Source: Candidatus Methanomethylicia archaeon
Lineage (GTDB): Archaea > Thermoproteota > Methanomethylicia > Nezhaarchaeales > B40-G2
Reading direction: 5' to 3'
Length of the DNA: 45,024 bases
Assembly (NCBI GenBank): GCA_029259155.1
Contig: JAPDJI010000007.1
Span: 1 to 45,024, forward strand
The position numbers and the translations under genes are program-made. The notes beneath the pieces are model-generated. The model was not told the origin of the DNA, ran no database searches, and saw only the letters and a list, made by a program, of their open reading frames with translations. Below are positions 1-13,459 of the stretch, one piece after another (position 1 is the stretch's first letter; every line of letters starts with the position of its first letter).

Positions 1-1113
1 AGGAGGATGGATAGGATAATAGAGGTCAACGAGAAGGCTAGGTACGTGGTCATAGAGGCGGGGGTTACTGAAGGCAAGCTTAAAGCCTACCTTGAAAGAC
101 ACTATCCTCACCTTAAACACTCCATCCCCGATGCACCTCCCTCAGCCACCGTGGTTGGCAACGCCCTCATACATGGGCAAGGTAGGCTGTCGCAGCAGTA
201 CGGCTTCACCTCAGACATGATCAACGGCTTGGAGGTCGTCCTGCCAACAGGTGAGGTCTGTAGGCTGGGTTCATGCGCTGCCTCACCTTACTGGTTCTCA
301 AGAGCTCCTCTACCTGACCTCATAGGGCTCTTCGTAGGGTGGCTGGGCACCACAGGCATAGTAACAAAGCTTTCCTTGAAGCTCTATCCGCGTAAGAAGC
401 TGAGGGACGTGGAGATCTTCGTCACCGAGGACCCTGAACTAGTCCCTGAAGTGGTTTTCAGGGTAACCCACACCGAGATGGTAGAGGATGTAGATATCTG
501 GGCTCAGCCCTACCCCCTAATCTTCAAAGACCTCCAACACACCTCCATTTACCTAACGGGCGATAATGAGGAGGAACTGGAGTTCAAGAGGAAGACGGTG
601 TGGAACGCGCTGCGCCACATCATCGATAGTAGGGAGGGGGGCTTCATGTTCGCCAACCCTGACATGAAGGAAGGGTTCCTCAAATCCCCTCAGCCAAGCG
701 TAGCTAGGATAGCGGACGTGAAGAGGGGTGGAGGGTTCGGGTATGTGGGAGCCATCATACCTGTCGAGAAGTTTCCCGAAGCCTATAGGCGTGGTGTAGA
801 GCTTTCGTTGAAGCATGATATAGGCACCTACTCCTTCATGGCTAGGGTGGTTGGCCGCGGCCACGCCTTAATGTTCGCCTGGTCTTACCCCTTCAACCGG
901 GCCGACGCGAAAAGCGTAGAGCGGGCACGTAGAGCTCTTGACGAAACCGATGAGCTAGCGCTGGAGCTAGGAGGAATACCTTGGAAGGCGGGGGTTTACG
1001 GACAGAGGCTTATCATGGAGAGGATGGACCCTAACACCTTAAACCTGCTGAAACGGGTTAAGGCGTTGTTGGACCCCAACGGGGTCATGAACCCTGGCAA
1101 CTGGGAGGCTTAA
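1..1113 (+). CDS. FAD-binding oxidoreductase, GlcD/D-lactate dehydrogenase (VAO/PCMH) family; 5'-truncated by window edge
   Basis: Frame is open from base 1 (RRMDRIIEVN...VIEAGV); ATVVGN, GLEVVLPTGEV, GTTGIVTK and terminal LDPNGVMNPG are typical of the family. Confidence 0.9.
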   Translation, partial: RRMDRIIEVNEKARYVVIEAGVTEGKLKAYLERHYPHLKHSIPDAPPSATVVGNALIHGQGRLSQQYGFTSDMINGLEVVLPTGEVCRLGSCAASPYWFSRAPLPDLIGLFVGWLGTTGIVTKLSLKLYPRKKLRDVEIFVTEDPELVPEVVFRVTHTEMVEDVDIWAQPYPLIFKDLQHTSIYLTGDNEEELEFKRKTVWNALRHIIDSREGGFMFANPDMKEGFLKSPQPSVARIADVKRGGGFGYVGAIIPVEKFPEAYRRGVELSLKHDIGTYSFMARVVGRGHALMFAWSYPFNRADAKSVERARRALDETDELALELGGIPWKAGVYGQRLIMERMDPNTLNLLKRVKALLDPNGVMNPGNWEA

Positions 1114-1116
1114 GCC

Positions 1117-2274
1117 ATGGAGGCTTCCTATGAGCTACATAGATGCTTCAGGTGCGGCTACTGCAAGTTTCCTGGAAGCTACGTAGACCTTAACTGCCCA
1201 GCTTATCAACGGTTCCGCTTCGAGTCCTACTCTACGGGCGGGAGGCTATGGTTGATAAGAGCTTGGCTCAACGGAGAGATTGCCTGGAGCCCACACTTAG
1301 CTGAAGTAGTCTATGCATGTACTACCTGCAGGAACTGTATGGAGCAATGTCCTTTCAAGTTCAAGGACCTACTCCTAGACATGGTCTTGGCTGGGCGTAG
1401 GGCAATGGTGGAGAAGGGGCTGGTCCCCCCCAAAGTAAAGGAGTTCCTTGAAAACCTCCTGAAACAGGGAAACCCATGGGGGATGTCTAGGGAGAAGAGG
1501 GCTAGCTGGGCCGTTGACCTGCCTAGGTACCGCGATGGCCACGAGTACCTACTCTATGTTGGCTGCTTAGCCTCATACGATGAGCGGGCCCAGAAGACGG
1601 CTAGAAGCCTAGCTAGGCTACTGAGCGAAGCCCAGGTTCCCTACGGCATACTAGGCAACGAGGAGGAGTGCGACGGCAACGAAGCCTACATGCTCGGGGA
1701 GGAGGGGCTCTTCGAATTGCTCGCTGAGAGGAACCTTGAGAAGTTTAAGGAGCTAGGTGTGAAAAAAGTGGTTGCTCTTTCGCCTCACGCCTACCACGTC
1801 ATGGTAAACCTGTACCCTAAGCTTGAGAAAGGGACGCTGGAGGTCTTACATTACACTCAGCTCCTCCAAAGGCTCCTGGAGGAGGGGAGGCTGAAGCCTT
1901 CAAGGTTGGAGGTTAAGGTAACCTACCACGACCCTTGCTACCTCGGTAGGCATAACCGGATATTCGACCCGCCCCGGCAAGTCCTAGAGAGCATCCCTGG
2001 CCTTAAACTATTAGAGATGGAGCGGAGCAGGGAAAACGCGCTTTGTTGCGGTGGAGGAGCAGGCAACTTTTACATAGACCTCCTAGCTGGACGAAATAGC
2101 CCTGCTAGAGTGAGGGTTAGGGAGGCCTACGATACAGGAGCTAGAGTCTTAGCGGTCGCTTGTCCAGCATGTCTGATCATGTTGGAGGACGCGGTTAAGG
2201 AGGAAGGCCTGGACGGCGAGCTTATGGTCAAGGACGTCGCCGAGGTGCTGATGGAGGCCTGCCTAAGAGGTTAA
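1117..2274 (+). CDS. Fe-S oxidoreductase, GlcF/HdrD-like (2x[4Fe-4S] plus CCG domains)
   Basis: CFRCGYC..CP and CTTCRNCMEQCP; YHDPC..CCGGG..ACPAC; starts 3 nt after the FAD oxidoreductase. Confidence 0.9.
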   Translation: MEASYELHRCFRCGYCKFPGSYVDLNCPAYQRFRFESYSTGGRLWLIRAWLNGEIAWSPHLAEVVYACTTCRNCMEQCPFKFKDLLLDMVLAGRRAMVEKGLVPPKVKEFLENLLKQGNPWGMSREKRASWAVDLPRYRDGHEYLLYVGCLASYDERAQKTARSLARLLSEAQVPYGILGNEEECDGNEAYMLGEEGLFELLAERNLEKFKELGVKKVVALSPHAYHVMVNLYPKLEKGTLEVLHYTQLLQRLLEEGRLKPSRLEVKVTYHDPCYLGRHNRIFDPPRQVLESIPGLKLLEMERSRENALCCGGGAGNFYIDLLAGRNSPARVRVREAYDTGARVLAVACPACLIMLEDAVKEEGLDGELMVKDVAEVLMEACLRG

Positions 2275-2327
2275 GTAGCGGGAGATTTTTCTAGGGAGCT
2301 GCTCCATGCTTCTTCGAGGTAAGCCCT

Positions 2328-3101
2328 GTGGCTCTACTTCCCTTAGCCCTTCTCGTCCTCGCAGCGCTCAGTCCATTTACGCTCAGCTTAACGGTGGAGG
2401 TTGACGTAGGCACCGTGGAGCTTAACGTGGGTGAGGAGCTAGCGGTTGTCTATGAGGGAGAGGCCCCTATCTACGCCGTGGTGGCTAACTTCACCGAGGG
2501 CTTAATGGTGTCTGAGGCCGAGGTGATGGATGGAGGACATAGAGGCCTAATCCAAGTAGAGGTGTATAACAGCTCAGTAAGGCTGGGTGAATGTTTAATC
2601 GCCTTAACCTCCACCAAGCCTTTCACCGTAAAGGTTTCGACAGAGGAGGCTCTGGCGACATACAACTGTGACGGCAACGTAACGGTGATGCTACATGTCA
2701 AGATAAGGGCGTTAGAGGTGGAGGAGGGCGAAGCACCGAGGGGGATATACGTCTCTTGGGAAAACCTCTGGCCTATGCTCATCTATGGAGCATTAACCCC
2801 TCCCTTCCTAGCAGCAGCGCTATTGGACGTTAAGGACTTCAAGGCCAGGAGGGGTAGGAGAGCTAGGGTGGAGAGCTTAGCCATCGTCTTAAGGTACATG
2901 ACCTACGCCTCTATCACCTGTTTAATAGCGGTTTTAGCGGTGACAGGGGGGTTAGCTCTCTATAGCCTGATAGCCCCCATGCCTCTTAGAGTTGAGGCTG
3001 GAAGCCTACTCCTCAGCTCCACCTTGACTGGAGCCTTAGCTCTCCTCTATGGGCTAGCCAGGTGGAAGGGGTGGTACGAGGCTGTCGATGAATATGATTG
3101 A
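2328..3101 (+). CDS. Hypothetical membrane protein: signal peptide, beta-rich extracytoplasmic domain, about 3 C-terminal TM helices
   Basis: Hydrophobic N-terminus, GAGGT SD before GTG, three hydrophobic segments with a basic loop KARRGRRAR; overlaps next gene by 14 nt. Confidence 0.8.
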   Translation: MALLPLALLVLAALSPFTLSLTVEVDVGTVELNVGEELAVVYEGEAPIYAVVANFTEGLMVSEAEVMDGGHRGLIQVEVYNSSVRLGECLIALTSTKPFTVKVSTEEALATYNCDGNVTVMLHVKIRALEVEEGEAPRGIYVSWENLWPMLIYGALTPPFLAAALLDVKDFKARRGRRARVESLAIVLRYMTYASITCLIAVLAVTGGLALYSLIAPMPLRVEAGSLLLSSTLTGALALLYGLARWKGWYEAVDEYD

Positions 3102-5772
3102 GAACCCTAAGCCTTGGTGGCTTAGGAGGCCGACGCTCAGGAAGATCCTAGGCCTACCGCTACTCCTAGCCAACAAGGAGTATAGGAGGTGGCGTAACGC
3201 TCAGCTAAGCCCAGGGAAGATTAGGAAGAGGCTGAAGGAGCTAGACAAGAAGCTTCCTAGGAAGCGCGAAGACCTTGTTGGGCGCGATAGGGAGTATCAG
3301 CTTATCATGAGCTCCGTGGGCTACCACGTGATTAGAGATAAAGCAGCCGTAGAGCTCTTCCAAGGAGCTCCTCCGCCGAAGTTCATCATCCTGAAAGGGG
3401 CTACGGGCACGGGCAAAACCATGCTTGCAGAGGTTTGCCTACGCGACGCCGTACTCTACGGGCTTGAGAAAGGGGTTAACGTGCAGCCTATGATGGTGAG
3501 CTGCTCAGAGATCTTCCACCCTCTCTATGGGCAGAGCGTCAGGAACATAGCAGCCGTGTTCAAGAAAGCAAGGTTTACGCCTACCGTACTATTCTTCGAC
3601 GAGTTCCACGCAGTAGGCATGAGGGTGGAGAAAGCCTACTACGCCGTGGATAGGGAGGACGTGAGGGTCCAGGACGCCTTCATCGACCACTTAAACCGCG
3701 TCCTGACAGGCCAAGACCGCGTAATAGTGTTGGCAGCTACGAGCAAACTGGAGGGTATGAGGGAGGATATTAGGCGTAGAGCCTACGTGATCGACCTAGA
3801 CCAGAACATCACCCGCGACCTACTCCTAGCCGTGCTTAGAGCTGAGCTGGAGAAGTATGGCTGGACCTACCTTGACGAGGAGGAGGTCATGAAGATCCTA
3901 GAGCGATCCGTCAGTGCCTTTAGGCAGACCCAGCTCACCCCCTTCGATATCATAGATGCCTGCAACAGGGTCCGAGCAAGGAAGGTGGAGCCTCTACGCC
4001 AAGCCTTGTTTAAACGAGTTAGTGGAGGAGGCAGGGTGGATGTCAGCTACAAGGTTAGCCTAGACGACTTCAAGTTAGTGGCCAGGGAGCTTCGAGGCTA
4101 CGTGGAGCAGGAGAAGAGCAGCGAGGTCATGAGCAGCGTGCTTAGGATAAAGCCTGCGGTGAGCTACTCCGATATAGGTGGCCTCTTCGGCATCAAGGAG
4201 AAGCTCTTCAAGATCATCTCGCTTAGCTTAAACCCTGATCTAGCCAGTAAGCTGAACTGGGTTCCTCCTAAAGGCTTCCTGCTATGGGGCGAGCCTGGCT
4301 GCGGTAAGACCTACCTGTCCAAGGCGATAGCTAAGGAAAACGACGCTGCCTTCTTCTACGTCCCCGCCGCTCAGCTCCTCATAAACGCGAAGTGGGTAGG
4401 AGACCCTGAGAAGAACGTGAAGGACCTCTTCGAGCTTGCTCGCAGGTCGGCGCCAAGCATCATCTTCTTCGACGAGTTCGACGTCATAGCTAGCAGGCGT
4501 CGCGGAGACCCTGTAAGCGACCGTATGACGGCTCAGATCTTAACTGAGCTCGATGGCCTACAGCCCCTAGAGAACGTGATTGTGATAGCCGCTACCAATA
4601 GGCTGGACACCATAGACGAAGCGGTGGTTAACCGGTTTGAGCCCTACGTAATTGAGGTTCCACTGCCTAGAAACGATGCTGAGCGCTTAGATGTGATAAG
4701 GGTTCACTTAAGGCAGTACGTAGCCCACCTAGACGAGGAAGTCGATGAGGGGAGGGTGCTCAGCGTACTGAAGAAGTTCAGGCTGGTGTCGCCTAGGGTG
4801 GTAGCCGAGGTAATAAGAGAAGCCAATAGGCTTAGGTCGCAGGAGGTGATGGCTGCCTCTGAGCTTAGGAGAGCCATGGAGGCCAACGACCCGGTCCTCG
4901 AGGAAAGAATTAGAAACCTCTACCGCGAAGACCTTGAAAGGCTTGAGAGGCAGGTAGGCAGGTTGACCTTAGAGAGGCTCAGGGAGGTTACGCCAAGCCT
5001 ACACCGGATAAAGATCTTCCACTTTGAGGCAGCCGCTGAGCAGTTAAAGCTCGACGTGGACAAGGAGATCATGGACGCTCAGGAAAGCATGCTGTGCGAG
5101 GAGCCAACCATAGGCACCGTGATGGGCTTAGCCACCGACGCCCAAGGGAGGAGAGGGGTCATATTAATAGTGGAGTGCTCCGTCAACCCGAGGGGGACGG
5201 GGAAGGTAACGGTGACCGGCGCGGCTAGGACCGTTCTTTTAGGGCATACCACGCCGGTGGAGGATGTTAGCGTCCAAGAGAGCGCCATCAACGTCACTGA
5301 GTACGTAAGGAGCTATGTCCACGAGAGGCTAGGCATAGATATCTCCAGCTTCGACTTCAAGTTCCAGGTTATAAGCCCTCTCGAAGGCGTAGCTGGGTTA
5401 GGTGTTAGCGGGCCTAGCTTAGGCCTAGCCTTTAGCATAGCCGCCATCTCAGAGCTAAGCAGCCTGCCTGTAGAGCCGGGGGTTGCCATAACGGGGAAAG
5501 GTGACATCAAAGGCAACGTAGGCCCTGTAGGAGGCTTAGGGTGGAGAGGAGCTGGCAAAATAGTGGCTGCCATCCAGACGAGGAAGGTCAAGGTGAAGAA
5601 GTTCATCCTTCCGAGGTGGAACTATGAACGTGGCCAAGACGAGGTAAAGGTACTTGAGGAGGTAGGCATCCACGTGATACCCGTCGAAAGGCAGGTCGAT
5701 GCTTGGCTCCACGCCCTAAACATCGGCGAGGAGGAGCTTCTAGAGAGGCTTAGAGCTAAGCTTTCCCATTAG
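3088..5772 (+). CDS. Tandem-AAA ATPase fused to a C-terminal Lon-type (S16) protease domain
   Basis: D1 GATGTGKT/LFFDEF; D2 PPKGFLLWGEPGCGKT/KWVG/IIFFDEFD/AATNR; from about 5101 GTVMGLA..GTGKVTVTG..QESA..SGPSLG..AITG..PVGG..KIVAA..ILPRWN. Confidence 0.9.
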   Translation: MNMIENPKPWWLRRPTLRKILGLPLLLANKEYRRWRNAQLSPGKIRKRLKELDKKLPRKREDLVGRDREYQLIMSSVGYHVIRDKAAVELFQGAPPPKFIILKGATGTGKTMLAEVCLRDAVLYGLEKGVNVQPMMVSCSEIFHPLYGQSVRNIAAVFKKARFTPTVLFFDEFHAVGMRVEKAYYAVDREDVRVQDAFIDHLNRVLTGQDRVIVLAATSKLEGMREDIRRRAYVIDLDQNITRDLLLAVLRAELEKYGWTYLDEEEVMKILERSVSAFRQTQLTPFDIIDACNRVRARKVEPLRQALFKRVSGGGRVDVSYKVSLDDFKLVARELRGYVEQEKSSEVMSSVLRIKPAVSYSDIGGLFGIKEKLFKIISLSLNPDLASKLNWVPPKGFLLWGEPGCGKTYLSKAIAKENDAAFFYVPAAQLLINAKWVGDPEKNVKDLFELARRSAPSIIFFDEFDVIASRRRGDPVSDRMTAQILTELDGLQPLENVIVIAATNRLDTIDEAVVNRFEPYVIEVPLPRNDAERLDVIRVHLRQYVAHLDEEVDEGRVLSVLKKFRLVSPRVVAEVIREANRLRSQEVMAASELRRAMEANDPVLEERIRNLYREDLERLERQVGRLTLERLREVTPSLHRIKIFHFEAAAEQLKLDVDKEIMDAQESMLCEEPTIGTVMGLATDAQGRRGVILIVECSVNPRGTGKVTVTGAARTVLLGHTTPVEDVSVQESAINVTEYVRSYVHERLGIDISSFDFKFQVISPLEGVAGLGVSGPSLGLAFSIAAISELSSLPVEPGVAITGKGDIKGNVGPVGGLGWRGAGKIVAAIQTRKVKVKKFILPRWNYERGQDEVKVLEEVGIHVIPVERQVDAWLHALNIGEEELLERLRAKLSH

Positions 5773-5809
5773 CCTTAAGCCCCTCCACGATTTTCGTAGG
5801 CCATGTCTC

Positions 5810-9038: not shown

Positions 9039-10325
9039 GTGGACAGAGCCAGGGTGCTACACGTTAAGGCAGGAGAGTTCATGTTAGCTGAGGGGCCTCT
9101 ACGTGTAAAGCTTCTTGAAGGTGAAGCCTCAATATGCGGTGCTAGATGCAGGGAAGGCTACGAGTTTCTACTGGTGGCTGAGAAGGCAGTTACCGTGGAG
9201 GCCCTCACAGACCTTAGACTGGAGGTTCATGGAGGCCTAGAGGCGAAGCTAGAGAAGAGCGAGAAGACCGTGCCCGAGGAGTGGCTTAGCGTAGTGGAAG
9301 AGCTAGCTAAGGGCCGTGGCACCGTAATGTTAGTAGGCCATGTAGACTCTGGGAAGACCTTCATGGCTACGTACATAGCCAACAAGCTGGTGGATGAAGG
9401 CTTCAAGGTAGCGGTGGTGGATAGTGATGTTGGACAGTCCAGCATAGGGCCTCCCGCCACGATAGGCATGGCGGTGATGGAAAAGCCCGAGCCCTTCCTG
9501 AACGAGTTGAAGATGGAGGCAGGCTACTTCGTAGGCTCAACCACGCCTACTGGCCACCTACTACCCATGGTGGTAGGTGTGAGGAAGCTAGTGGATAGAG
9601 CTAGGCAAGTAGCAGACTGCATAGTTATAGACACGACCGGGATGGTGTTCGGAGGGCCTGCCAGAGCCTTAAAGCTGTATAAGGCTGAGGTTGTCAGGCC
9701 CGACATAGCGGTGTTGCTGGAGAGGAGAGGAGAACTTAGCCACTTAGCCAAGCAGCTTGAAGCTCTAGGGATCGAGGTTAGGCGCATACCAGCTTCAAGG
9801 TGGGTGAAGCCTAGAGGGAGAGGGGAACGTAGAGCTTTGAGGGAGAGAGCTTTCCAAGTCCACTTTAAACGTAGGAAGCCGCGTGAAGTTGAGCTAGACT
9901 TAACCTCAACGCCTCTGATAGGGACTTACCTGGGATCAGGTGTGCAACCTTCAGGGTTGAGGGAGGAGGTTAAGGCGCTACTAGGCGTAGAGGTGCTTTA
10001 CTGTGAAAGCCTACCTGAGGGGATCGTGGCCATAATTGAAGAAAAGGTAGCTCCCAGGCAAGTAGAGGTCTTAAGGAGGAGGTTCGGTGAAACCATCAAG
10101 TTGTTGAGGAAAGGCTTCGAAAAAGGGCTTCTAGTAGGCCTCTTAGACTCTGAGGGGCTACTTCTAGACGTAGGCGTGGTGAAGCGTTTAGAGCTGGAAA
10201 AGAGCAGGGCCACGGTGACAACTCCCCTCGAGGATCTTGGCTACGTGAGGGCGGTTAAGCTGGGGTCCATTAGGCTCAATGAAGAGTATGAGGAAGTGGA
10301 GAGCCTAAGACCAGGCTTCCTTTGA
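9039..10325 (+). CDS. Clp1/Nol9/Grc3-family polynucleotide 5'-hydroxyl kinase
   Basis: GHVDSGKT, DSDVGQSSIGPP, IVIDTTG, R..R...R lid, GLLVGL C-terminal domain. Confidence 0.92.
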   Translation: MDRARVLHVKAGEFMLAEGPLRVKLLEGEASICGARCREGYEFLLVAEKAVTVEALTDLRLEVHGGLEAKLEKSEKTVPEEWLSVVEELAKGRGTVMLVGHVDSGKTFMATYIANKLVDEGFKVAVVDSDVGQSSIGPPATIGMAVMEKPEPFLNELKMEAGYFVGSTTPTGHLLPMVVGVRKLVDRARQVADCIVIDTTGMVFGGPARALKLYKAEVVRPDIAVLLERRGELSHLAKQLEALGIEVRRIPASRWVKPRGRGERRALRERAFQVHFKRRKPREVELDLTSTPLIGTYLGSGVQPSGLREEVKALLGVEVLYCESLPEGIVAIIEEKVAPRQVEVLRRRFGETIKLLRKGFEKGLLVGLLDSEGLLLDVGVVKRLELEKSRATVTTPLEDLGYVRAVKLGSIRLNEEYEEVESLRPGFL

Positions 10326-10341
10326 CCTGGAGGATGTGTAG

Positions 10342-11163
10342 ATGAAGCTTACTAGGAGGAGGTTCCTAGCGCTTTTAGCTGGAGGCTTAGCGCCCTTAAC
10401 CCTCGACCTCTCCTTCATAGAGCCCTACTTATTCGTAGAGACCAGCCACATCTCCATTACGCTACCTAAACCCTTGACGTCGACGCTGAGGATACTTCAC
10501 GTAACCGATACTCACTTCGGAAATTCCCTGGTTAGCTTCGTCTACGAAGCTGTAGTATCCAGGGCTAAGGAAGCCAAGCCAGACCTCATAGCATATACGG
10601 GCGACCTAGTCTCCAAGGCTGAAAGCTTTGAGGACGCCGTAAGCTTTGTTGAAGCCTTAGCCAGCGAGGCTCCTGTCTTCGTTGTTTGGGGCAACTGGGA
10701 TCACTGGAGCCTAGGTGGCGAAATCGGTGAGCTGAAGAAGCATCTAGAAGATATAGAGGGGGTTAAGGTGTTGGTGAACGAGGGAGAAGCCTTCAGGGAC
10801 GACGTATATATCGTGGGTGTAGATGATCCCTACTTATGGCGCAGCGACCTTAGCCAGGCTCTCAGCAATGCCCCAGATACCTGTGTGAAGGTATTGCTCG
10901 CCCATTCACCTCAGATCATAGGGGAGGCTGCGGGCAAGGTTGATGTGGTATTAGCGGGGCATACGCATGGAGGACAGGTAGTTATTCCCCTTGTAGGCCC
11001 CCTCTTCGTGCCCCTACCAAGTGAGTATAGAAGGTTTCTCGCTGGAGCCTTCTTCGAAGACGGCACGTACATGTACGTGTCGAGAGGAATAGGCATGAGT
11101 CTTCTACCCGTGAGGTTTCTATGTCCTCCTGAAGTAGCGGTTATCGATCTAGAGGAGTCGTAG
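10342..11163 (+). CDS. Calcineurin-like metallophosphoesterase (YkuE/YaeI type) with twin-arginine signal
   Basis: TRRRFL signal; DTH, GDLV, GNWD, LAHSP, GHTHGGQ, YVSRGIG. Confidence 0.9.
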   Translation: MKLTRRRFLALLAGGLAPLTLDLSFIEPYLFVETSHISITLPKPLTSTLRILHVTDTHFGNSLVSFVYEAVVSRAKEAKPDLIAYTGDLVSKAESFEDAVSFVEALASEAPVFVVWGNWDHWSLGGEIGELKKHLEDIEGVKVLVNEGEAFRDDVYIVGVDDPYLWRSDLSQALSNAPDTCVKVLLAHSPQIIGEAAGKVDVVLAGHTHGGQVVIPLVGPLFVPLPSEYRRFLAGAFFEDGTYMYVSRGIGMSLLPVRFLCPPEVAVIDLEES

Positions 11164-11242: not shown

Positions 11243-13459
11243 CTAAGCCACCGACTTGCCGCTAGGTTTCTCTAGAGGAATGGAGGCAGCCCTCCCTAAG
11301 ACCTCTTCGAGGAGGCTTAGCGCCTTCTTCCTTGAGAGGAGGCGGTTGTTGTTACCGCAGAAGGGGTCGTATACACATCTAGGACACCCGTCGTAGCAGC
11401 TACAGTTCTTCATGATCTCAAGGGCTACTCTATGAGCCTTCTCCAGCCTACCGTAGAGTAGCTTAGCTAAGCCTGAGCCGCCGGGCGTTGAGTCGTAGAT
11501 GACTATGTGGCCGCTAGGGTAGCTTACACCTCCAAGGTCTGTGAGGCCTGCCCCTACAACAGGCCTAGCAGCGTGAATTACAGCGTGCTCCAACGCGTGT
11601 ATGGCCTCGGGGTCGGCGTAGTCAGCGTAGCGAGCCTCGAGAAGCATAGTATTATAGCTCCAGGAAAGCGGTTCTTCCAGGTACTTCAACGTCTTAGGCT
11701 TACCTCTCTCCGAGGCATAGATTTGATATACTGCGTAGCCCACCACCGTTTTAACCACCCTGCCTGACCCGTAGGCCACGCGAATCCCGTCAACCTCGCG
11801 CTCAACCTCTAAGTCCAGCTCCTCTACCTCCACCTCGTATAGCGGCCTAGTGTAGTAGGGTAGCTCCCCTACCGGTTTGACGTATGCCTTCAACCTCTTT
11901 AGGTCTAGGCGCTCCACCTCATATACCACTCCTTGGTGAAGGTATACAGCTTCAGGGTGTAGGTCGTGTAGAGCCATGGGGAGCTCACGGGAGCCTATTA
12001 GCTTTTCTCCACGGTATATCTCGACTTCAGGCCCAGCTCCTCGGAGCCCCTTCTGGCTGATTAAGCGCCATGCTTCCCTTGAAGGGTAGTAGCTGGCACC
12101 TCTAGCCAGTAAGAGCCCTTCAGCCTCAAGCTTGAGCACAGCCTCCCTCCAAGCAGGAGGTATGGCCTGTTCGCGTAGCCTTCCATGTTGAAGAGCGTAA
12201 GCTAGTACGTGAAGCTTGACTACCTCCTCGTTGCTTGGTTCAAAGACTATGGGGGTAAGCTCCTGCTCAAAGTATCCTTCAGGACGGGCTTCGTAGTAAG
12301 CATCGATTGGGTCGTCGCCTAGCACCATAAACACGTAGCCAGGCAAACCTCTCCTACCAGCTCTCCCAGCTCTCTGAAGATACTTTACGTAGCTAGGGGG
12401 AGGAGAAGCCATTACCACGGCGTCAAGCGATCCGATATCTATGCCTAGCTCGAGGGTTGGGGTGGCCACTACGCCGTCGAGAGCTCCAGCCCTTAACGCA
12501 TCCTCCACCTTAACCCTTTCAGCTTTGGGCAAGCCTGCTCGGTGGACAGTTACGTTGGCTCCATCCCTCTTAGCCATCCTGGCCAAGAGCTCTGCCATCT
12601 GCTGGCTATCAGTGAAGCCAAGCACTTTAAGCCCCATCCTCGCCAAGTAGGCTATGAGCTTAGAGGCCACCATCCACCTGCTTAGGGGCCCTGCGCTAAC
12701 CATTACGTGGTAAGCTACTCCTCTCCTTCTAGGTAAGCCTCTAACCACCTCCACGTCTACGTCGAAGAGAAGCCTCCCTAGCTCCTCAGGGTTGCCTATG
12801 GTGGCTCCTGAAGCTATCAACTGCACTTTACCCCTAACGGTCCTCTTAAGCCGCTCCAACACCATCCTCATGTGGGAGCCGAAGGCCCCCTCGTATACAT
12901 GGGCCTCATCCAGGACCACGGCGTCAACTTCCCTCAGAATTCCTCTAAACCTAGAAGAGTAGGCTAAGCCGAAGTGCAGCATGTCAGGGTTTGTTATGAA
13001 GACCGCGGGGGGGTGCTTAGCGATCTCCCTACGCTCGTGTTCGGGTGTATCGCCGTCGTAAACCGCCGCCGTCACTCCCACGTTGAAGCATAGCTTCGTC
13101 AGCCTAGCCCTCTGATCCTTAGCTAAAGCCTTAGTAGGGTATATAATCACGGTCTTTAACCCTTCCTTCAGTGCTCGGTCCAGTAATGGAACGATGAAAG
13201 CCTCGGTCTTTCCAGTGGCGGTACCCGACGTGATCACCACGTCTCTACCTGAAGAGATCAGCCTATAGGCCTCAAACTGGTAGGAGTAAAGCCTCTCCAA
13301 CCCCTGAGCTATCAAGGCAGAGGATAACGTCTCCGCCAGGCCTATCTCAGAAACTCTAGGTCCTTGAGGCGGCTCCCCAACCTCCTCCTTCCTCACGTGA
13401 ACTATGCGGACTGGGGACCCAGCGAACATAGCTTTAATAGCTTCCACGACTCCCAGCAA
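11243..13459 (-). CDS. DEAH-box helicase with C-terminal DUF1998 Zn domain (Hrq1/SftH/YprA family)
   Basis: LYSYQ, GTATGKT, TNPDMLH, DEAHVY.GAFGSH, ELGIDIG, QRAGRAGRR, HALEH, CSCYDGCPRC. Confidence 0.92.
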   Translation of the reverse strand: MLGVVEAIKAMFAGSPVRIVHVRKEEVGEPPQGPRVSEIGLAETLSSALIAQGLERLYSYQFEAYRLISSGRDVVITSGTATGKTEAFIVPLLDRALKEGLKTVIIYPTKALAKDQRARLTKLCFNVGVTAAVYDGDTPEHERREIAKHPPAVFITNPDMLHFGLAYSSRFRGILREVDAVVLDEAHVYEGAFGSHMRMVLERLKRTVRGKVQLIASGATIGNPEELGRLLFDVDVEVVRGLPRRRGVAYHVMVSAGPLSRWMVASKLIAYLARMGLKVLGFTDSQQMAELLARMAKRDGANVTVHRAGLPKAERVKVEDALRAGALDGVVATPTLELGIDIGSLDAVVMASPPPSYVKYLQRAGRAGRRGLPGYVFMVLGDDPIDAYYEARPEGYFEQELTPIVFEPSNEEVVKLHVLAYALQHGRLREQAIPPAWREAVLKLEAEGLLLARGASYYPSREAWRLISQKGLRGAGPEVEIYRGEKLIGSRELPMALHDLHPEAVYLHQGVVYEVERLDLKRLKAYVKPVGELPYYTRPLYEVEVEELDLEVEREVDGIRVAYGSGRVVKTVVGYAVYQIYASERGKPKTLKYLEEPLSWSYNTMLLEARYADYADPEAIHALEHAVIHAARPVVGAGLTDLGGVSYPSGHIVIYDSTPGGSGLAKLLYGRLEKAHRVALEIMKNCSCYDGCPRCVYDPFCGNNNRLLSRKKALSLLEEVLGRAASIPLEKPSGKSVA

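Follow-up and report, generated by a model that had tools for sequence, protein, structure and literature searches.

The window analyzed here is a stretch of 45,024 nucleotides (nt) from a Candidatus Methanomethylicia archaeon (GenBank assembly GCA_029259155.1, contig JAPDJI010000007.1, positions 1 to 45,024 of the forward strand). It carries a pair of co-oriented genes with overlapping open reading frames (ORFs): a gene for a putative membrane-anchor subunit (P0121, the anchor) and, in the +1 frame relative to it, a gene for a protein (P0001, the AAA-AAA-Lon protease or protease) in which two classical AAA modules, D1 and D2, are followed by a helical linker and a C-terminal Lon peptidase domain. 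Positions of the genes, domains and motifs are collected in Table 1.

Table 1. Positions in the window of the gene pair and of the domains and motifs of the protease (residues are numbered in the protease; aa, amino acids).
Feature	Position	Residues	Strand	Remarks
Putative membrane-anchor subunit gene (P0121, 257 aa)	2328..3101		+	no Pfam family
14-nt overlap of anchor and protease ORFs	3088..3101		+	anchor stop TGA 3099-3101; protease ATG 3088, second ATG 3094
AAA-AAA-Lon protease gene (P0001, 894 aa)	3088..5772		+	single uninterrupted frame
N-terminal helical region	3088..3267	1-60	+	invariant W10, W11, W35; PWW ... YRRWRNA motifs
D1 classical AAA module	3268..4092	~61-335	+	
D1 Walker A GATGTGKT	3397-3420	104-111	+	
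D1 pore loop PLYG	3520-3531	145-148	+	
D1 Walker B	3586-3603		+	ending D171/E172
D1 RRR arginine cluster	3772-3780	R229-R231	+	
D2 classical AAA module	4105..4887	~340-600	+	
D2 Walker A GEPGCGKT	4288-4311	401-408	+	
D2 pore loop KWVG	4390-4401	435-438	+	W436 from translation
D2 Walker B	4459-4476		+	ending D462/E463
D2 invariant arginine	4633-4635	R516	+	
Helical linker D2-peptidase	4888..5094	~601-669	+	conserved; invariant R618, H645, F646
Lon_C (S16) peptidase domain	5095..5688	670-867	+	Pfam
Catalytic serine of GPS	5416-5418	Ser777	+	codon
Catalytic lysine of GKIVAA	5557-5559	Lys824	+	codon

Two stretches of the protease were matched by Pfam PF00004 (AAA; 181.8 bits, E 9.5e-54), D1 and D2 reaching 69.2 and 120.7 bits against a cut-off of 21.2 when scored separately on the genome, and the C-terminal part was matched by PF05362 (Lon_C; 53.3 bits against a gathering cut-off of 21.1, E 3.5e-14; 56.5 bits on the genome). 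An initial annotation of the DNA had described a tandem AAA ATPase running into a Lon proteolytic domain in one frame; this architecture was recovered, the hidden Markov model match for the Lon domain included, and the positions given there for both Walker A motifs, both pore loops, S777 and K824 all agreed with the translation. Full-length homologues (n = 35) were aligned with a mean column identity of 57%. The ATPase residues K110, D171/E172, Y147/G148, R231, K407, D462/E463, G438 and R516 were invariant in 35/35 sequences, as were S777 and K824, the latter two also in all 21 C-terminal halves of a second alignment drawn from genomes of both subfamilies described below. This retention of all Walker, pore-loop and dyad residues fits an enzyme with an active peptidase and two active ATPase rings. 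The helical linker is family-specific: profile matches that include it separate the family from other Lon proteins.

The continuity of the locus was examined in independent assemblies. Sixteen public runs are listed for the stretch, with no RNA data set as a holder, and in six of the runs half or more of the words sampled from 2300-5800 were present; contigs were compared from four runs (X2-X5, from four studies), a possible source run being left out. The junction between D2 and the Lon domain (4900-5150), where the initial annotation had wished to exclude a chimera by read mapping, was bridged in one piece by contigs of all four other runs, with no indels or joints, and the contig from one of them, 46 kb long, covered 2300-5800 completely and without gaps, at 10 base differences. 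The gene boundary at 3088-3101 was likewise crossed without an indel in the same four runs, so the split into two genes is real and not a sequencing frameshift. The reading of the architecture as an assembly chimera or a decayed gene, to which we would give next to no probability, was refuted by these contigs together with full-length homologues, over 80 in number and drawn from many assemblies, and 55 of 401 sampled genomes of the same phylum with the same architecture; the frame is unbroken and no catalytic residue varies.

The ATPase part was compared with solved structures and with the organism's own proteins. The closest solved structures to the whole protease were VAT (5g4f) and p97 (E 4e-76), and no solved chain covered all three modules in either sequence or fold searches. 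D1 alone was best matched by D1 of p97, VAT and Rix7 (E ~3e-16) and D2 by D2 of VAT and p97; a search with the AlphaFold2 (AF2) model of the protease (Foldseek) returned p97, Cdc48 and Rix7 chains at E ~1e-28 over ~630 columns with ~25% identity. Against the two Cdc48 paralogues of the organism, D1 scored 66.6 and 57.8 bits with D1 and 53.1 and 51.2 bits with D2, and D2 scored 155 and 152 bits with D2 and 126 and 134 bits in the cross-match to D1. From this collinear preference, seen with solved chains and with the organism's own paralogues alike, the tandem looks like a Cdc48-type pair, its modules corresponding in order to D1 and D2 of Cdc48.

The protease was not, however, assigned to any curated family: it fell far below the NCBIfam cut-offs for CDC48 (TIGR01243; 210.7 bits vs 802.65), PAN (207.3 vs 500), FtsH (TIGR01241; 144 vs 600), LonB (TIGR00764; 67.8 vs 516.6, C-terminal part only) and LonA (TIGR00763; 64.2 vs 608.05), and no NCBIfam model exists for an AAA-AAA-Lon family. 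Among the best 25 of 34 Pfam families matched by the protease (E up to 0.1), CDC48_N (PF02359), CDC48_2 (PF02933), Peptidase_M41 and the LON N-terminal domain were absent. True Cdc48 relatives in the homologue search carry PF02359 and PF02933; in the protease only ~60 residues precede D1. The statement of the initial annotation that the protein matches none of LonA, LonB, FtsH or Cdc48/VAT was thus borne out, every curated cut-off having been missed and no solved chain holding the three modules.

For the peptidase part (residues 640-894) the best solved match was the proteolytic domain of Archaeoglobus fulgidus LonB (1z0b; E 3.6e-13, ~210 residues, end to end), with Ser777 and Lys824 in the columns of the catalytic serine and lysine; LonA chains and Thermococcus onnurineus LonB followed at E 1e-8 to 1e-6. 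By these alignments the peptidase is closest to archaeal LonB. The available part of PMC2605481, in which the Ser-Lys dyad of Lon is defined, gives GDSA[ST] as the serine consensus of LonB and GPS as the LonA type, and in this motif (GPS) the protease is LonA-like. A different reading of the domain is that the protein is a Cdc48-like unfoldase or segregase whose Lon-like part forms a non-catalytic oligomerization or ligand-binding ring. Lon-like domains play this part in RadA/Sms, ComM and BrxL. Protease-inactive Lon-like domains are found in other P-loop ATPases, and papers on RadA/ComM and BrxL were among the literature retrieved. The domain of the protease, in contrast, scores above the Lon_C threshold and can be aligned over its full length with the peptidase domain of an active LonB, and Ser777, Lys824 and their glycine-rich surroundings are invariant across both subfamilies at ~36% overall identity, which is hard to explain without catalysis; the non-catalytic reading is accordingly considered improbable.

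The anchor consists of an N-terminal signal/transmembrane (TM) segment, a beta-sandwich ectodomain (~21-128) and a three-helix membrane module (~144-246), as delimited by the AF2 model and hydrophobicity, and ends in an acidic tail (YEAVDEYD). In the AF2 model of the anchor (predicted local distance difference test, pLDDT, 82.6) the ectodomain is a nine-strand beta sandwich. Foldseek returned weak, generic immunoglobulin (Ig)-like or beta-sandwich matches for the anchor model (best E 6.3e-4, TM-score at most 0.24), and no usable match was found in the ESM Atlas. Gene neighborhoods were inspected in 14 of the 23 other genomes with a protease of the same subfamily (subfamily 1), taken down the list where contigs were long enough. 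An anchor homologue lay directly upstream in all 14 loci, co-oriented and with its stop inside the protease ORF; anchor identity was 24-39% across these loci, against 60-84% for the protease. In two Bathyarchaeia-type loci only the membrane module is left (124 and 134 aa); the indispensable part would accordingly be this module and not the ectodomain.

In orthologues with Asgard labels (Odinarchaeia, Hodarchaeota, Promethearchaeota; 989-1015 aa) the protease begins with a hydrophobic extension of 106-127 residues that is missing from other homologues. The TM module of the anchor was aligned by hhalign to the N-terminal 106-127 residues of seven full-length Asgard proteins (probability 99.4%, E 1.3e-21, 113 columns), as compared with E 0.007 for a reversed target and E 0.039 to 0.66 for ten column-shuffled targets; BLASTP with composition correction reached 3e-18. 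The Asgard N-terminal extensions and the C-terminal membrane module of the anchor are homologous, and the alignment between them reaches as far as the acidic tail, that is, to the stop of the separate anchor and the start of the PWW motif of the protease, so that what is a gene boundary in the window is matched by a peptide bond in the Asgard proteins. In a quick IQ-TREE maximum-likelihood tree the five fused proteins included formed one clade inside subfamily 1 (Shimodaira-Hasegawa-like approximate likelihood ratio test, SH-aLRT, 100); given that subfamily 1 is otherwise split at the loci examined, this would fit a single fusion event of anchor and protease. The conserved N-terminal helical region of the protease stands directly behind the membrane module in the fused forms and would be an anchor- or membrane-proximal element. 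The ectodomain, absent from the Asgard fusions and dispensable in some lineages, is more likely to be regulatory than structural. The predicted topology of the anchor is self-consistent: the positive loop and the tail would be cytoplasmic, and it is the tail that continues into the protease in the fusions.

Complex prediction was performed with residues 1-330 of the protease and 140-257 of the anchor and was graded 'weak support' (score 0.43; best of three controls 0.00), with at least 93% of contacts agreeing between runs and a partner pLDDT of at least 73. The mark is reached by 58/80 solved complexes and 2/110 mismatched pairs, and, of these passes, those at 0.60 or below comprise only 7 solved complexes of the 80 and both mismatched pairs. 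Because of the fusion evidence, the prediction is taken as mild corroboration of a contact between the two proteins. The initial annotation had called the protease self-contained. This did not hold: the conserved overlapping gene upstream and the Asgard forms with the same module fused N-terminally indicate that the machine is here most likely membrane-tethered and two-component. The conserved membrane-anchor partner is the addition made here to the earlier observation.

The full architecture recurs, at 35-84% identity, in about 85 proteins of many different assemblies. The taxonomic spread, which the initial annotation had left to be established, extends over Thermoproteota lineages and some Asgard archaea, and the family falls into two deep subfamilies. 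By label its holders are metagenome-assembled genomes (MAGs) of Nezhaarchaeota, Methanomethylicia/Verstraetearchaeota, Bathyarchaeia, Brockarchaeota, Marsarchaeota, Odin-, Hod- and Promethearchaeota; no cultured organism was found among the named holders, which may explain why the family has not been studied. In the organism's own phylum the 55 genomes with the family held it in one place each (one match split over two contigs), these genomes being mostly multi-contig. In the phylum of Promethearchaeum syntrophicum it was found in 8/301 sampled genomes, four with frames of ~1014-1019 aa, and the cultured strain MK-D1 gave no family match; in the phylum of Methanoperedens it was found in 0/251. 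A profile of linker and Lon domain searched against 1.84 billion representatives retrieved 31 proteins at E <=1e-30, followed by a sharp drop to Lon-only matches, and two AAA stretches with Lon_C were present in 9/9 representatives tested. Two archaeal clusters of the ESM Atlas (118 and 110 members) carried AAA and Lon_C on 97-98% of members. A motif-pattern scan of genome contigs (two generic AAA motifs) returned no orthologue among the at least 80 loci kept, all of which were of Cdc48/FtsH type and 28-45% identical in the ATPase part only. Source names of family members are limited to 'AAA family ATPase', 'hypothetical protein', 'transitional endoplasmic reticulum ATPase' and 'SpoVK/Ycf46/Vps4 family', and many members have none.

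Members of subfamily 2 (~900-940 aa; 33-38% identity; 126 clusters at E <=1e-20) are labeled as Bathyarchaeota/Bathyarchaeia, Brockarchaeota, Marsarchaeota, Nitrososphaerota or Thermoprotei MAGs. Neighborhoods were taken, on contigs of sufficient length, in 6 of the 31 genomes found with subfamily 2. In all six a protein of 239-270 aa adjoins the protease and shares the layout of the anchor, with a hydrophobic N-terminus or signal/TM segment, a beta-rich middle and two C-terminal hydrophobic helices.

Single members of the family depart from the common layout. P0166 (1261 aa) has an intein (Intein_splicing and LAGLIDADG_3, ~569-876) inserted behind the D2 ATPase core, and P0402, also of 1261 aa, is listed with the same Pfam families (precomputed). 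P0154 (1120 aa) carries an extra BSP-type peptidase domain (PF04450, E 9.5e-15) C-terminal to the Lon domain, a layout that would place two different peptidases on one double-AAA chain. P0146, P0147, P0150, P0153 and P0157 (967-1067 aa) are without the WW motif and have a charged N-terminal extension of ~130-250 residues before D1. A look-alike cluster of the ESM Atlas (~1140 aa, AAA and Lon_C) is labeled bacterial, with the phylum known for two members, and is a lead only; P0065, a partial protein of 57% identity, is labeled Methylomirabilota. A bacterial branch of the family is possible.

It was also considered whether the pair is an anti-virus defense or mobile-element system, a Lon/AAA effector pair. 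The protease gave a sub-threshold match to the model of the anti-phage ATPase IteA (116.2 bits vs a cut-off of 510), mostly through the shared AAA fold. Set against this are the 56-84% identity across distant archaeal lineages, the single place per genome in the sample, a tree (the quick IQ-TREE tree) in which sequences group roughly by named lineage, a GC content flat at 0.54-0.55 through the locus, and neighbors that, the anchor apart, are housekeeping genes and not conserved; a defense role is judged very improbable.

The organism's own genome (G000; 94% complete) was searched for other proteolytic machines. It holds three proteasome-subunit genes (20S) and two Cdc48-like genes, and no LonB or PAN above curated cut-offs. 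The two Cdc48-like genes and the protease are its only strong single-gene PF00004 matches, and the sole other Lon_C protein is an ATPase-less membrane form of 303 aa (L002 1309..2220, minus strand, contig C12). This 303-aa protein starts with a hydrophobic segment and also has a coiled-coil-like stretch, and its Lon domain shows the serine motif DGPSAG and the lysine motif EKALAAA; adjacent to its gene and divergent from it lies L002 2404..3264 (plus strand), which by eye has an SPFH/stomatin-type look. A LonB-like gene (E <=1e-60, none above the cut-off) was found in 22/401 genomes of the phylum, none of them among the 55 with the AAA-AAA-Lon family.

Taken together, the gene pair 2328..3101 and 3088..5772 probably encodes a membrane-tethered, ATP-dependent, self-compartmentalizing double-ring AAA-Lon protease whose family has been undescribed so far. 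Subunits of 894 aa would assemble into a hexamer of three stacked rings, formed by D1, D2 and the C-terminal Lon Ser-Lys peptidase, the D1 and D2 rings presumably having descended from a Cdc48-like tandem without its N domain. ATP hydrolysis in both rings would drive the aromatic pore loops (Y147, W436), so that substrate would be threaded processively across D1 and D2 and be cleaved by Ser777 and Lys824 in the Lon chamber. The TM module of the anchor and the N-terminal helices of the protease would hold the entry face of D1 at the cytoplasmic side of the membrane. The layout would be the topology of FtsH (anchor, ATPase, peptidase) with one extra ring and a serine in place of a zinc peptidase. 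Likely functions of the protease are the quality control and the regulated turnover of proteins in or close to the membrane, in archaea without FtsH and canonical LonB.

Several results weigh against this proposal. Where classical AAA proteins have two arginines, D2 keeps only one (R516), and catalysis between subunits in D2 may therefore differ from that of classical AAA rings. The AF2 monomer of the protease (pLDDT 79.7) had a predicted template modeling score (pTM) of 0.45, which leaves the inter-domain arrangement uncertain. The family was not found in 346 of the 401 sampled genomes of its own phylum, and 324/401 held neither the family nor a LonB-like gene; for this reason the AAA-AAA-Lon protease is not claimed to replace LonB, which it cannot do in general. 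Longer proteins were searched with the TM module of the anchor (140-257) as a single sequence, and none matched at E <=0.001. The subfamily-2 neighbors were divergently transcribed in three of the six loci (upstream and co-oriented in the other three) and had no homology to subfamily-1 anchors detectable by hhalign (E 0.025, probability 1.9%), so that only an analogous layout is claimed for them. The protease-anchor complex prediction was a weak pass only.

The last two of these results would suit a soluble, cytosolic AAA-AAA-Lon protease with the upstream membrane protein as substrate, regulator or co-transcribed neighbor, and so would the lack of a TM-like segment in the protease, in which no 19-residue window reaches a Kyte-Doolittle value of 1.6. 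It is countered by the covalent N-terminal fusion of the TM module in seven Asgard orthologues, in register with the gene boundary of the window, by the adjacency of the anchor with overlapping ORFs in 14/14 loci, and by the two Bathyarchaeia-type loci that retain the TM module only. A soluble enzyme is thus regarded as unlikely, if less so than the non-catalytic and defense readings, and the membrane-tethered double-ring protease is preferred.

A broader proposal, made tentatively and with somewhat less than even confidence, is that the family is a distinct, ancient AAA+ protease family beside Clp, HslUV, Lon, FtsH and the proteasome-ATPases. It would be a three-ring machine with a dedicated membrane anchor, through whose Ig-like ectodomain extracellular events may be coupled to intracellular proteolysis; its task would be membrane-protein quality control in the many TACK lineages and some Asgard archaea without FtsH and canonical LonB, and its split (TACK) and fused (Asgard) forms would record a gene fusion. 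If active, the enzyme would be a natural single-chain model for the transfer of substrate from two AAA rings into a protease chamber. It would then suggest how archaea without FtsH or LonB may dispose of membrane proteins, and would be a clean example of evolutionary module shuffling, in which a tandem of Cdc48 type was combined with a peptidase like that of LonB and with a membrane anchor, split or fused. It also marks an annotation gap, as family members stand under generic names with no NCBIfam model and are held by lineages with few or no cultured members.

Other genes of the window were inspected. Upstream of the anchor-protease pair, co-oriented and with short gaps, lies a glycolate-oxidase-like pair (7..2274, plus strand), an FAD-linked oxidase (FAD_binding_4 and FAD-oxidase_C) and a CCG/4Fe-4S protein; it accompanies the protease in only 1 to 2 of 20 related loci and is therefore not counted as part of the system. 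An antisense ORF of 97 aa (5313..5606, minus strand) opposite the coding sequence of the Lon domain appeared 'conserved' in 10 related loci and is most simply a by-product of conservation on the sense strand, not a gene. Downstream, the gene of a Clp1-type P-loop protein (PF16575) and then that of a calcineurin-like phosphoesterase lie at 9039..11163 (plus strand), and 11243..13459 (minus strand) encodes a DEAD-box helicase with an MrfA zinc-binding domain at its C-terminus; these are ordinary genes.

The literature was searched for earlier descriptions. A 2008 census of Lon architectures (PMC2605481) includes, in its available part, the LON-AAA-Lon_C form and Sigma54-, Mg-chelatase-, DnaB- and PDZ-linked forms and no AAA-AAA-Lon_C; the accessible parts of PMC10933270, PMC11188069, PMC5070193 and PMC6017811 do not describe an AAA-AAA-Lon architecture. 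A full-text literature search likewise returned no description of the family, in agreement with the initial annotation, to which it was not known as characterized; an arCOG/asCOG table or a paywalled review may mention it. As judged by computation, the AAA-AAA-Lon protease is a well supported new architectural variant of the AAA+ proteases. None of the handful of ATP-dependent protease architectures known to us joins a type II classical AAA unfoldase covalently to a peptidase.

The protease was compared with known systems one by one. Like Cdc48, VAT and p97, it has two tandem classical AAA modules in the collinear order D1-D2 with aromatic pore loops in both; unlike them, it lacks the N domain and has a C-terminal Lon peptidase of its own and a putative membrane-anchor partner. 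Cdc48 and VAT bear a C-terminal HbYX motif for docking on the 20S proteasome, whereas the protease ends in LSH.

Archaeal LonB has a single Lon-type AAA+ module, into which TM helices are inserted, whereas the protease has two classical AAA modules and no TM segment, its anchor being a separate or N-terminally fused module; its serine motif, GPS, also differs. Shared with LonB are the archaeal host, the Ser-Lys Lon_C peptidase, the ATP dependence predicted for the protease, and membrane association, reported for LonB in the accessible part of PMC3391209 and likely for the protease.

The order of parts from the membrane would be that of FtsH, a TM anchor with an ectodomain followed by a classical AAA ring and a peptidase ring, and in the Asgard fusions anchor, ATPase and peptidase stand in one chain, as in FtsH, whose membrane attachment is covered in the available part of PMC9601784. 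FtsH differs in having one AAA ring and a zinc metallopeptidase (M41), where the protease has two rings and a serine peptidase (S16).

With LonA the protease shares an ATPase and a Lon_C peptidase on one polypeptide and the GPS context of the serine; unlike LonA, it has neither the LON N-terminal domain nor a Lon-type AAA+ module. The Clp ATPases are of another AAA+ clade and associate with ClpP, a separate tetradecamer, without a covalent link. In the protease, by contrast, the peptidase is fused to the ATPase and would be six-fold like the rings. Two stacked ATPase rings feeding a peptidase chamber would nonetheless be common to the protease and to ClpAP and ClpCP, as the ClpAP concept is given in abstracts.

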